A DNA stretch of 64,000 nt from Escherichia coli (GTDB lineage Bacteria; Pseudomonadota; Gammaproteobacteria; Enterobacterales; Enterobacteriaceae), in the NCBI RefSeq assembly GCF_003334765.1, contig NZ_QOWT01000016.1; one strand, 5' to 3'. A program made the position numbers and the translations under genes. A model generated the notes under the pieces. That model did not search any database and had not been told where the DNA came from. It saw only the letters and a program-made list of their open reading frames with translations. This document shows positions 38,580 through 39,993 of this stretch, piece by piece (position 1 is the first letter of the stretch; every line of letters begins with the position of its first letter).

Positions 38580-38591
38580 AAGTATGCACAC

Positions 38592-38619
38592 GGGCAGCAC
38601 GACGCTGCCCGATTTTTTT
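38592..38619 (+). terminator. Rho-independent terminator downstream of dapD
   Basis: Hairpin gggcagcACGACgctgccc followed by gaTTTTTTT. Confidence 0.8.
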
Positions 38620-38632
38620 GCAGGGATGAGCG

Positions 38633-39445
38633 ATGATTTCACGCCGCCGATTTTTGCAGGCTACTGCCGCGACGATAGCCACGAGCTCAGGTTTCGGTTA
38701 TATGCATTACTGTGAGCCAGGCTGGTTTGAATTAATCCGTCACCGCCTCGCCTTTTTTAAAGACAACGCAGCACCATTCAAAATTCTTTTTCTGGCCGAT
38801 CTCCATTACTCTCGTTTTGTTCCTTTAAGCCTGATTTCTGACGCGATTGCTCTTGGCATAGAACAAAAGCCCGATTTGATATTACTGGGCGGCGATTACG
38901 TATTATTTGATATGTCGCTGAATTTTTCGGCGTTTAGTGACGTACTCTCCCCCCTTGCCGAATGTGCGCCGACGTTTGCCTGCTTCGGCAACCACGATCG
39001 CCCTGTTGGTACAGAAAAAAATCACTTAATTGGCGAGACGTTGAAATCAGCGGGCATCACGGTGTTGTTTAACCAGGCTACGGTGATCGCCACGCCGAAC
39101 AGGCAATTCGAACTGGTAGGCACTGGTGACTTATGGGCCGGACAATGCAAACCGCCTCCCGCCAGCGAAGCCAATCTGCCAAGACTGGTGCTGGCGCATA
39201 ATCCCGACAGCAAAGAAGTCATGCGTGATGAACCCTGGGATCTGATGCTGTGCGGCCATACTCACGGCGGGCAACTGCGCGTACCGTTGGTTGGTGAACC
39301 TTTTGCCCCTGTCGAAGATAAACGTTACGTCGCCGGATTAAATGCCTTTGGCGAAAGACACATCTACACAACCCGTGGCGTGGGCAGTTTGTATGGTTTG
39401 CGTCTGAACTGCCGCCCGGAAGTAACGATGCTGGAACTGGTGTAG
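38633..39445 (+). CDS. yaeI: calcineurin-like metallophosphoesterase YaeI with Tat-type signal
   Basis: 270-aa ORF with N-terminal RRRFLQATAA twin-arginine motif and metallophosphatase motifs (DLHYS, GDY, GNHD, GHTH). Confidence 0.9.
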   Translation: MISRRRFLQATAATIATSSGFGYMHYCEPGWFELIRHRLAFFKDNAAPFKILFLADLHYSRFVPLSLISDAIALGIEQKPDLILLGGDYVLFDMSLNFSAFSDVLSPLAECAPTFACFGNHDRPVGTEKNHLIGETLKSAGITVLFNQATVIATPNRQFELVGTGDLWAGQCKPPPASEANLPRLVLAHNPDSKEVMRDEPWDLMLCGHTHGGQLRVPLVGEPFAPVEDKRYVAGLNAFGERHIYTTRGVGSLYGLRLNCRPEVTMLELV

Positions 39446-39606
39446 ATCGTGAATTTTATCACCAGAATAAAGCAGGTAATTTTTTGATTTTTACGCCATG
39501 ATAGAAGTCTGGAAGAAAAAGGCTTTCTGCGATCACAGTCGAGCCGGGCGGGCCAGGCCAAATGCTAAAATAAGCACAATTTACTGACTCATTTTGAGGT
39601 AACGCT

Positions 39607-39993
39607 ATGTACGACAATCTGAAAAGTCTGGGTATTACCAATCCTGAAGAAATTGATCGTTACAGCCTCCGGCAGGAAGCCAACAACGATATTCTGAAAA
39701 TCTATTTCCAGAAAGACAAAGGCGAGTTTTTCGCCAAGAGCGTTAAGTTTAAATATCCGCGTCAGCGTAAAACGGTCGTCGCTGATGGTGTGGGTCAGGG
39801 TTATAAAGAAGTCCAGGAAATCAGCCCGAATCTACGGTATATCATTGATGAGCTTGATCAAATCTGCCAGCGTGACCGCAGCGAAGTTGATCTTAAGCGT
39901 AAGATCCTCGACGACTTACGTCACCTGGAGTCAGTCGTAACCAATAAGATCAGCGAGATTGAAGCCGATCTGGAAAAACTAACGCGTAAATAA
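39607..39993 (+). CDS. yaeH: uncharacterised protein YaeH (UPF0325)
   Basis: 128-aa ORF starting [21 protein letters not shown]; recognised YaeH. Confidence 0.9.

Follow-up and report, generated by a model that had tools for sequence, protein, structure and literature searches.

The dapD-yaeH interval of Escherichia coli K-12: an accessory gene for a predicted Tat-exported phosphoesterase beside a strongly constrained core gene

The stretch of E. coli DNA analyzed here (64,000 nt, hereafter the window) includes the K-12 locus glnD-dapD-yaeI-yaeH, recognized from the list of open reading frames (ORFs) and from a match to RefSeq (Table 1). Both yaeI and yaeH are already annotated genes of K-12: on the identical K-12 sequence RefSeq labels their products as "phosphodiesterase YaeI" and "DUF3461 family protein", and the start codons agree. 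The dapD terminator, yaeI, the gap and yaeH all lie where the initial annotation had placed them. The terminator comprises a hairpin (38591–38611) with a stem of 8 bp, 7 of them GC, followed by a tail of A and 7 T that ends at 38619, with the folding energy of -17.6 kcal/mol (z = -3.2). The T-run is separated by 13 nt from the ATG of yaeI (38633), close to the distance of about 14 bp claimed previously, and the gap of 161 bp claimed between yaeI and yaeH was recovered exactly. The first of the two hairpins in the convergent interval between yaeH and cdaR possesses a T-rich tail on the minus strand only, and therefore it looks like the terminator of cdaR. The search of Rfam with positions 37000–41500, carried out at a permissive threshold, returned only 2 chance-level matches and no known RNA element in the spacers.

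Table 1. Features of the dapD-yaeH locus, with coordinates in the window
Feature	Position	Strand	Basis and remarks
dapD	37755-38579	+	ORF
dapD intrinsic terminator	38591-38619	+	hairpin CGGGCAGC-ACGAC-GCTGCCCG, then A + 7 T
yaeI-specific segment, 842 bp	38615-39456	+	alignment; 18 bp 5' of ATG to 11 bp past stop
yaeI Shine-Dalgarno AGGGA, probable	38622-38626	+	candidate read from the sequence; 6 nt 5' of ATG
yaeI CDS, 270 aa, phosphodiesterase YaeI	38633-39445	+	ORF, NF008460 531 bits, RefSeq on identical K-12 sequence
Predicted twin-arginine signal peptide, residues 1-22	38633-38698	+	TAT_signal E 0.004; RR conservation; putative cleavage site
Metallophosphoesterase catalytic core, residues 49-212	38777-39268	+	PF00149, invariant columns, AF2 fold matches
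yaeI-yaeH spacer, 161 bp	39446-39606	+	holds yaeH promoter region; RpoD SELEX site
Partner-gene relic, last 9 codons + stop (ITRIKQVIF*), 30 bp	39458-39487	+	alignment to Escherichia sp. MOD1-EC7003
yaeH candidate extended -10, TGcTAAAAT	39563-39571	+	candidate read from the sequence; 36 nt 5' of ATG
yaeH CDS, 128 aa, DUF3461/UPF0325	39607-39993	+	ORF, NF010213 244 bits, 94-100% identity across Enterobacteriaceae
Two adjoining hairpins, convergent yaeH/cdaR interval	39995-40050		hairpin scan

The YaeI protein, which begins with MISRRRFLQATAAT, matches the NCBIfam equivalog model of YaeI over its entire length (NF008460, residues 1–270, 531.3 bits, above the cut-off of 188) and the Pfam family Metallophos in its central part (PF00149, residues 49–212, E 7e-13). 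It exhibits the full set of metallophosphoesterase motifs: D56-L-H58, G87-D88, G119-N120-H121-D122, H189 and G208-H209-T-H211. A check for unconserved metal ligands upheld the earlier description of YaeI as a calcineurin-like phosphoesterase: among 64 homologs (44–92% identity) all the numbered residues of these motifs, the ligands D56, H58, D88, N120, H121, H189 and H211 among them, are invariant, except for H209, which is kept in 90% or more. The AF2 model of YaeI (pLDDT 94.5) displays the metallophosphoesterase fold and was matched by Foldseek to Mre11, GpdQ, Rv0805 and CD73 (probability 1.0, TM 0.45–0.55). The two-layer β-sandwich and the metal-binding motifs are common to YaeI, Mre11/SbcD, GpdQ, Rv0805 and the 5'-nucleotidases (UshA, CD73), and the likeness to solved metallophosphoesterases is generic only (TM 0.45–0.55, 11–17% identity, best profile E 2e-4). 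The PDB sequence search with YaeI gave no match, the PDB profile search identified Mre11/SbcD only (E 2e-4 or weaker), and no solved structure of the YaeI/YkuE/LpxG clade appeared among the PDB sequence, profile and fold matches. The earlier statement that YaeI has no known substrate holds for the natural substrate and fails for a model one, as the database label transferred to a homolog (P0035) reads "phosphodiesterase with model substrate bis-pNPP". Activity of YaeI towards bis-pNPP was reportedly detected by Kuznetsova et al. in general enzymatic screens (2005).

The N-terminus of YaeI contains the motif S3-R4-R5-R6-F7-L8, which is of the [ST]-R-R-x-F-L-K type. A check for a Sec-type or absent signal also sustained the twin-arginine assignment of the initial annotation: R4-R5 are invariant in 64 of 64 homologs, while S or T occupies position 3 in 55, F7 is kept in 57 and L8 in 55. 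The profile scores are marginal for the single sequence (Pfam TAT_signal, residues 1–17, E 0.0039; TIGR01409, 16.5 bits vs the cut-off of 16.7). The h-region comprises 17 uncharged residues in K-12, composed of Ala, Thr, Ser and Gly (Kyte-Doolittle 0.51), and 14–21 residues across the homologs, where Gly and Ala abound and the hydrophobicity is weak (mean Kyte-Doolittle 1.2). Counted from the conserved Tyr23, small residues prevail both at -1 (52/64 sequences) and at -3 (56/64), and position 25 is basic (R, H or K) in 58/64. In K-12 the putative cleavage site is G20-F21-G22 before Y23, with no canonical A-x-A, and we infer from the family pattern that the signal is probably cleaved before Tyr23. 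We propose that YaeI is a binuclear-metal phosphoesterase, synthesized with a twin-arginine signal peptide, which would fold and take up its metals in the cytoplasm, would then be exported by TatABC and, probably upon cleavage before Tyr23, would be released to the periplasm to hydrolyze a phosphodiester or pyrophosphate bond of some substrate. From its motifs, the most likely identity of YaeI is that of a phosphodiesterase or pyrophosphatase which crosses the membrane already folded.

A comparable protein is YkuE from Bacillus subtilis, like YaeI a short metallophosphoesterase of a single domain that is preceded by a twin-arginine signal. A "shorter homologue" from E. coli was aligned with YkuE by Tooke et al. 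(2017), in whose description the Tat signal of YkuE is cleavable and the protein lacks a transmembrane domain (PMC5449189); the likeness is taken from the legend to Figure 7 of that paper. YkuE has a Gram-positive cell wall as its target, whereas YaeI would end in the periplasm and is accessory within its own species; the natural substrate is known for neither.

Or perhaps the signal of YaeI stays uncleaved and tethers the enzyme at the periplasmic face of the inner membrane, where its target would be a membrane-embedded, lipid-linked phosphate or pyrophosphate? The missing A-x-A site in K-12 agrees with this possibility, as do the passage of the h-region, without a linker, into the strongly conserved segment Y-x-R-x-x-E-P-x-W-L-E, the single continuous helix formed by residues 4–30 in the AF2 model, the membrane association of the related LpxG via its N-terminal helix and its lipid substrate (PMC4807358), and the finding that the RR-preceded segment is a transmembrane domain in polytopic YkuE-like relatives (PMC5449189). 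However, the h-region, short and weakly hydrophobic both in K-12 and in the family, is typical of cleaved Tat signals, A-x-A-like sites occur in many homologs in addition to the prevalent small residues at -1 and -3, and YkuE itself was described with a cleavable signal and without a transmembrane domain (PMC5449189). We regard a tethered YaeI as unlikely, if the most credible of the alternatives considered here, and retain the released periplasmic enzyme as the working model.

The genomic comparisons revealed that yaeI and yaeH, presented in the initial annotation as a pair, differ sharply in their distribution: yaeI occurs in 2,084 of the 5,426 complete E. coli genomes (~38%), vs 5,425 (>99.9%) for yaeH. 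In 3,339 of these genomes (~62%) the place of yaeI is taken by an unrelated 129-bp filler, which is non-coding and AT-rich. The check on neighborhood conservation likewise spoke against the pair, with dapD and yaeH found side by side in 70 other species of Enterobacteriaceae, where the spacer measures 106–122 bp and yaeI is absent. The gene has been reported as enriched in phylogroup A (bioRxiv 10.1101/096479), and in strain 1506 it is broken by an IS1 insertion. On the left, the breakpoint of the segment specific to yaeI falls inside the T-run of the dapD terminator, after 38614, as the sequences of O157:H7 and ATCC 25922 diverge past ...GCTGCCCGATT; the T-run reads TTTTTTT in K-12 and TTGCTTT in the filler allele. 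From 39457 on, the spacer is common to all Escherichia alleles, whether or not they carry yaeI. Because most E. coli have lost it, yaeI is dispensable. Where it is kept, the dN/dS between alleles (0.09–0.15) indicates purifying selection, and the gene appears to be still functional.

The segment is best understood as the remainder of an accessory cassette. Across the genus Escherichia, and in a small number of further enterics, this cassette occupies the interval that separates the dapD terminator from yaeH. In complete cassettes, such as those of Escherichia sp. MOD1-EC7003 and E. coli GF43, a gene of 236–244 aa starts 11–14 bp after yaeI. The alignment of K-12 with Escherichia sp. MOD1-EC7003 extends to the stop codon of yaeI and then jumps by 695 bp to the 3' end of this partner gene, of which only the final 30 bp remain in K-12. 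The partner is a Cys/His-rich protein of a tiny unannotated family (19 clusters), for which the NCBIfam and Pfam searches yielded nothing significant; PADLOC gave no match for the partner, YaeI or YaeH. Within E. coli, yaeI seems to have been lost rather than gained, because the yaeI-less allele retains the cassette-type region upstream of yaeH. Upstream regions of this type accompany the cassette in Pseudocitrobacter cyperus, Superficieibacter and a rare Salmonella as well, and none occurs in genera that lack the cassette. Two readings of the filler were rejected. A decayed yaeI or partner gene is not supported by local alignments of both strands with four cassettes, which scored no better than shuffles, with the exception of the last ~20–45 bp, which match the 3' end of the partner gene. 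A minus-strand ORF of 23 codons with a strong GGAGG-type ribosome-binding site (L001 1748–1677 in a filler allele) is probably no gene: it is intact in 7 alleles, the differences are mostly non-synonymous (e.g. 6/8 in strain AH25), and it overlaps the terminator hairpin.

How is yaeI expressed in K-12? The two-hexamer scan found no sigma-70-like site upstream of the gene. One published list of the sigma-E regulon includes yaeI (PMC5105897); nevertheless, our pattern scan, which recovered the sigma-E promoter of degP as a positive control (42864–42891, 2 mismatches), identified near yaeI only one match with 3 mismatches (38516–38543), and the overall number of matches (46) was below that expected by chance (50). 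We rejected a sigma-E promoter of yaeI as unsupported, and the list may have meant another gene. As no promoter of its own was found, yaeI probably owes a low level of expression to dapD transcripts running past the terminator. The dependence on read-through proposed earlier is plausible, given the 13 nt between terminator and ATG, the lack of a sigma-70-like site and the chance-level sigma-E match. With its 7 GC pairs and 7 U, however, the dapD terminator appears to be a strong one, and read-through may be so low that yaeI is nearly silent in K-12. If YaeI depended for its function on the partner gene lost from K-12, the K-12 enzyme could be inactive in vivo.

This raises the question whether yaeI of K-12 is an essentially silent, decaying remnant with no physiological role. 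The absence of a detected promoter, the strong terminator, the loss of the gene in 62% of genomes and its interruption by IS1 in strain 1506, the existence of several clusters of truncated YaeI proteins (P0013, P0014, P0021, P0026) and the deletion of the partner gene in K-12 would all fit such a scenario. Against it, the reading frame is intact with all catalytic and export motifs kept, the alleles evolve under the purifying selection mentioned above, and 2,079 of the 2,084 carriers possess at least 80% of the gene. We consider the remnant scenario improbable, and favor a low-level, functional YaeI.

A further, speculative scenario, to which we assign an equally low probability, regards the dapD-yaeH spacer as a slot for accessory genes that is exchanged through recombination and would at first have held a two-gene module of YaeI and a tightly coupled cytoplasmic partner, the latter possibly a dedicated maturation or proof-reading factor, by analogy with the chaperones encoded beside other Tat substrates. 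Were the two-gene module real, K-12 would carry an orphaned enzyme, and the three allelic states of E. coli (with both genes, with yaeI alone, with none) would correspond to stepwise decay or to selection on an envelope-modifying activity.

YaeI falls in the same calcineurin-like branch as LpxG from Chlamydia trachomatis (UDP-2,3-diacylglucosamine pyrophosphatase, NF033458), and by sequence it would be a member of the YkuE/LpxG-related clade, yet no LpxG. A cytoplasmic, LpxG-type UDP-2,3-diacylglucosamine hydrolase that backs up LpxH in lipid A synthesis could be suggested by the match of the LpxG profile to residues 133–269 (E 3.7e-35); however, its score (121.8 bits) is far below the cut-off of 350, and yaeI is absent from 62% of E. 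coli genomes. Moreover, lpxH is essential in K-12, which carries yaeI. The suggestion could also draw on the electronic annotation of YaeI with "lipid A biosynthesis" and on the enrichment of yaeI transposon mutants, together with mutants in LPS-core genes, after T7 selection (PMC7414163). LpxG, a Mn2+-dependent enzyme that cleaves the pyrophosphate bond, acts on the cytoplasmic side and is membrane-associated via an N-terminal transmembrane helix (PMC4807358), in contrast to YaeI, whose conserved Tat signal, with its invariant twin arginines, would place it across the membrane from UDP-diacylglucosamine. Finally, LpxG rescues the loss of lpxH, and the E. coli hosts used do not survive the deletion of lpxH unless a plasmid provides either lpxH or lpxG (PMC4807358). 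A back-up role in lipid A synthesis is very improbable.

YaeH was described as a conserved protein of unknown function, and our results bear this out. It is a full-length member of DUF3461/UPF0325 (NF010213, residues 1–128, 244.4 bits, above the cut-off of 150; its homologs carry PF11944), a family without an assigned function, and it is 94–100% identical across the genera of Enterobacteriaceae, with the dN/dS of 0–0.03. The family is a small one, with 172 clusters (50% identity) in a set of 1.84 billion representatives. An apparent relative of 4,103 aa (P0305) was rejected as spurious, being a eukaryote-type protein with EGF/fibronectin repeats, whose score is the sum of repeat matches of 3–4 bits each. 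The PDB sequence search gave only noise (E > 0.5) and no solved structure of DUF3461, and the predicted model suggests a small β-domain, with weak matches to PH-like domains, followed by a C-terminal helix of 54 residues. In the literature found, yaeH serves as a linked marker or insertion site only, with no functional data; it has also been deleted without comment in strain constructions. The candidate extended -10 element upstream of yaeH is conserved in Escherichia alleles and was missed by the two-hexamer scan. Genomic SELEX placed a site of the RpoD holoenzyme in the yaeI-yaeH spacer, with each gene listed as its own operon (PMC3946193). We propose that yaeH is a core gene of Enterobacterales with its own promoter, encoding a very strongly constrained cytoplasmic protein of 15 kDa.

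Outside Enterobacteriaceae, the adjacency of yaeI and yaeH did not occur among the relatives examined (four of YaeI, one of YaeH), and the search for a recurrent informative neighbor around these five non-enteric relatives found none, the contexts being unrelated; the yaeH homolog outside Enterobacterales is monocistronic. The idea that yaeI and yaeH constitute an operon or work as a pair, which could appeal to their adjacency on the same strand, to the lack of a canonical terminator detected after yaeI and to the recurrence of the order dapD-yaeI-yaeH in Escherichia species, Superficieibacter and P. cyperus, has next to no credibility in view of the yaeI-less genomes (3,339 of E. coli, and 70 other species), the lack of co-occurrence in the distant relatives, the RpoD site and the separate operon listing (PMC3946193), the ~10-fold difference in constraint (0.09–0.15 vs 0–0.03), the predicted export of YaeI as opposed to YaeH, which has no signal sequence, and the presence of another gene between the two in complete cassettes. 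In our judgment, the locus is quite likely to comprise two independent neighbors, an accessory gene for the Tat-exported YaeI and a core gene for the cytoplasmic YaeH, transcribed from its own promoter.

Both genes were known before, and the history of the locus is a modest addition. Of the two proteins, it is YaeH, with its near-zero dN/dS and no informative neighbors, that intrigues more. For YaeI, the label "lipid A biosynthesis" is probably wrong for a Tat-exported enzyme, and it has already been used in reading a phage-receptor screen (PMC7414163). The absence of the cassette companion of yaeI from K-12 should be weighed before the natural substrate is sought in this strain. The value of our analysis is mainly corrective: yaeI is an accessory gene of E. 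coli, which forms no conserved unit with yaeH.

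The region corresponds to glnD-dapD-yaeI-yaeH of E. coli K-12, towards which cdaR and degP run on the minus strand, and is 100% identical to that of K-12 MG1655 and many other strains. The initial annotation treated yaeI and yaeH as an uncharacterised pair downstream of dapD, and all elements that it observed are correct according to the ORF list and the sequence: the yaeI start codon, placed about 14 bp past the dapD terminator, lies 13 nt from it, and the 161-bp gap before yaeH agrees with the ORF coordinates. The terminator hairpin folds with -17.6 kcal/mol (z = -3.2).

Features of the dapD-yaeI-yaeH region and its surroundings (window coordinates)
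Feature	Position	Strand	Source	Remarks
dapD	37755-38579	+	ORF list	
dapD terminator hairpin	38591-38611		terminator scan	CGGGCAGC-ACGAC-GCTGCCCG, then A and seven T to 38619
probable yaeI ribosome-binding site	38622-38626		sequence	AGGGA
yaeI	38633-39445	+	ORF list	270 aa
yaeI-yaeH spacer			ORF list/sequence	161 bp
partner-gene 3' relic	39458-39487		alignment with MOD1-EC7003	30 bp, ATC...TGA, ITRIKQVIF and stop
yaeH	39607-39993	+	ORF list	128 aa
two adjacent K-12 hairpins	39995-40017 and 40018-40050			yaeH-cdaR spacer
degP sigma-E promoter match	42864-42891	minus		GGAACTTCAGGCTATAAAACGAATCTGA; just upstream of degP; near-consensus, 2 mismatches

yaeI is an accessory gene, and its adjacency to yaeH is an accident of position. 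Of 5,426 complete E. coli genomes, 5,425 match the 1.7-kb region, only 2,080 of them over its full length. Used as the sole query, yaeI is present in 2,084 genomes, while a 147-bp query across the alternative sequence of O157:H7 identifies the other allele in 3,339, and the two classes together comprise essentially every genome. Alignment with O157:H7 and ATCC 25922 and BLAST delimit a K-12-specific segment of 842 bp (38615-39456), which begins within the T-run of the terminator, 18 bp 5' of the ATG, and ends 11 bp past the yaeI stop; in its place the other allele carries 129 bp of AT-rich filler DNA, in which no significant similarity to yaeI was found. Orthologous groups enriched in phylogroup A in a mastitis pan-genome study include yaeI (bioRxiv 10.1101/096479). 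Across species, 70 of 80 representative loci retrieved through YaeH have no yaeI and a dapD-yaeH spacing of 106-122 bp, among them Citrobacter, Klebsiella, Enterobacter, Raoultella, Kluyvera, Cedecea and Kosakonia. The gene is found in 4 Escherichia loci (protein identity: E. albertii 83%, E. whittamii 86%, MOD1-EC7003 84%, a divergent E. coli 89%), the filler in one Escherichia species, and further copies occupy exactly the same site in Superficieibacter electus (65%), a rare Salmonella enterica assembly (84%), Pseudocitrobacter cyperus (70%; three other species of this genus are without it) and one other relative. Beyond Enterobacteriaceae the nearest YaeI relatives (44-59% identity) are mostly metagenome sequences, those with a named source being labelled Verrucomicrobiota (Verrucomicrobiales, Limisphaerales, Methylacidiphilales) or Blastochloris, and lie in unrelated gene contexts; a YaeH homologue with 45% identity stands alone, with a Na+/H+ antiporter on one side and an MFS transporter on the other. 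For the same genome pairs dN/dS is 0.09-0.15 for yaeI versus 0-0.03 for dapD and yaeH, a roughly ten-fold gap in constraint between yaeI and yaeH. The proposed pairing is therefore not borne out: the neighbourhood is not conserved, the contexts outside the family are unrelated and the constraint differs.

Some E. coli strains carry more distant versions of the locus. In 75 genomes yaeI reaches only 80-90% nucleotide identity, and in strain GPEC1209 synonymous divergence from the window (37755-39993) reaches 0.20 for dapD, 0.50 for yaeI and 0.66 for yaeH; because all three genes are unusually divergent from K-12, an imported recombination tract is suggested.

An ORF of 236-244 aa lies 11-14 bp after yaeI in MOD1-EC7003, in the rare Salmonella and in P. 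cyperus; one of the complete E. coli genomes, GF43, has it as well. The ORF has no match in Pfam, NCBIfam or PADLOC, belongs to a family of only 19 clusters, and exhibits conserved Cys/His motifs (TCSTCFNESLL, FHTSHCH, DWQPVVDYMN, EPVPW). The alignment of K-12 with MOD1-EC7003 continues as far as the yaeI stop, skips 695 bp and resumes at the final 30 bp of this ORF, the relic listed in the table. About 150 bp 5' of yaeH are common to all Escherichia alleles, including the one lacking yaeI, and are recognisable in P. cyperus, the rare Salmonella and Superficieibacter; the cassette-free genera are without this upstream region, and their spacer is shorter and has a terminator of its own. The simplest reading is a history of three steps, in which the Escherichia ancestor would have held a cassette composed of yaeI and the second gene together with a new 5' region for yaeH, the second gene would have been lost in the K-12 type, and both genes in the allele that most E. 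coli carry. The scattered occurrence in other genera could stem from repeated losses or from transfer, with recombination acting through flanks that are 94-100% identical. A relative of the partner (38% identity) on a metagenome contig (L102, 4001-4714) lies beside relaxase, NikA-like and HTH_17 genes, and no metallophosphoesterase is encoded close to it; judging by these neighbours, the family is not always linked to yaeI and can occupy mobile-element contexts.

The dapD-yaeH spacer looks like a recurrent insertion site. Insertions unrelated to the cassette include a 762-aa minus-strand ORF in Enterobacter wuhouensis (L063, 1414-4000) and 646 bp of AT-rich, 40%-GC DNA without any ORF of at least 60 aa in Enterobacter sp. 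BIGb0383 (L071, 3355-4000). The filler allele (L001, 1748-1677, minus strand) contains a 23-codon ORF running antisense through the dapD terminator hairpin, with a strong, length-variable ribosome-binding site, GGGGGGA(GGA)n, and intact in 7 alleles; it is probably not a gene and was rejected, the allele differences being mostly non-synonymous. Between yaeH and cdaR (39994-40100) lies a second intergenic region that varies: for many E. coli genomes the match stops right past the yaeH stop (query 1595-1598), and the spacer measures about 50, 88 and 114 bp in three strains.

The promoter scan found no sigma-70-type site between the dapD coding end and yaeI, and a promoter within dapD would still face the dapD terminator; hence yaeI most likely depends on read-through from dapD, as initially proposed. 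According to one paper, yaeI belongs to the sigma-E regulon (PMC5105897); our sigma-E scan, with the match upstream of degP as positive control, found no sigma-E-like promoter for it. Genomic SELEX placed an RpoD holoenzyme site within the yaeI-yaeH spacer and gave the two genes as separate operons (PMC3946193); TGcTAAAAT at 39563-39571 is a plausible candidate for an extended -10 of yaeH.

YaeI matches the NCBIfam equivalog 'phosphodiesterase YaeI' (531 bits; cut-off 188), and its residues 49-212 match Pfam Metallophos. Since the LpxG model scores 121.8 bits (E 3.7e-35) against a cut-off of 350, YaeI is related to LpxG but falls outside that family. Among 64 full-length relatives (44-92% identity to K-12 YaeI; 1,696 found in the database search) the metal ligands D56, H58, D88, N120, H121, H189 and H211 never vary and conservation of H209 is 90% or higher, which upholds the calcineurin-like phosphoesterase motifs. 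The alignment-based AlphaFold model is confident (pLDDT 94.5, pTM 0.90), with only generic structural matches (Mre11/SbcD, GpdQ, Rv0805, 5'-nucleotidases; TM 0.45-0.55, 11-17% identity); sequence and profile searches found no solved structure for the clade. YaeI reportedly hydrolyses bis-pNPP (the work of Kuznetsova et al. 2005), an activity echoed in the transferred database name of a homologue (cluster P0035). LpxG itself, a UDP-diacylglucosamine pyrophosphatase that depends on Mn2+, is associated with the membrane, has an N-terminal transmembrane helix and rescues the loss of lpxH; in the same study E. coli hosts did not survive deletion of lpxH unless lpxH or lpxG was plasmid-borne (PMC4807358). 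Transposon mutants of yaeI were enriched after T7 selection in a phage-receptor screen (PMC7414163), whose authors explained this by the annotation 'involved in lipid A biosynthesis', a label that is doubtful for an exported enzyme.

The predicted twin-arginine signal likewise stands, and no Sec-type or missing signal emerged among the 64 relatives. R4-R5 are invariant, position 3 is S/T in 55, F7 occurs in 57 and L8 in 55; the following 14-21 residues carry no charge, are rich in Gly/Ala and show only weak hydrophobicity (mean Kyte-Doolittle 1.2), small residues precede the conserved Tyr23 (-1 in 52, -3 in 56), and 58 have R, H or K at position 25. Such an N-terminus is the textbook case of a Tat signal peptide that is cleaved and has a basic 'Sec-avoidance' residue, and it characterises the family and is no chance feature of one sequence; for K-12 YaeI alone Tat profiles are marginal (Pfam E 0.004; TIGR01409 16.5 bits versus a cut-off of 16.7). 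Tooke et al. align a shorter E. coli homologue with B. subtilis YkuE, to which they ascribe a cleavable Tat signal and no transmembrane domain (PMC5449189). Tullman-Ercek et al. 2007 reportedly included the YaeI signal peptide in their survey of Tat signals. At the sequence level the Tat-metallophosphoesterase reading is well supported and we consider it probable, with export, cleavage and substrate all inferred. In strain 1506 (NZ_CP059288.1) IS1X2 splits yaeI, the N-terminal piece being annotated as 'twin-arginine translocation signal domain-containing protein'.

YaeH fits its description as a conserved protein without known function. It is a full-length member of DUF3461/UPF0325, a small family (172 clusters at 50% identity), with 94-100% identity among Enterobacteriaceae genera and at least 83% in the best 120 matches, drawn from genera across Enterobacterales. 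AlphaFold predicts five short strands (16-71) and one long helix (74-127; pLDDT 85, pTM 0.57). No solved structure was found, nor any conserved neighbour outside Enterobacterales, and no functional role in the literature, where the papers found use yaeH solely as a linked marker or insertion site, one deletion included; despite its low dN/dS the gene has been removed in the course of ordinary strain building.

Annotations exist already for both genes, and YaeI is in part characterised. What is added here is the accessory status of yaeI with its breakpoints, the remnant of a partner gene that was lost, and the measured contrast with the exceptionally constrained yaeH.
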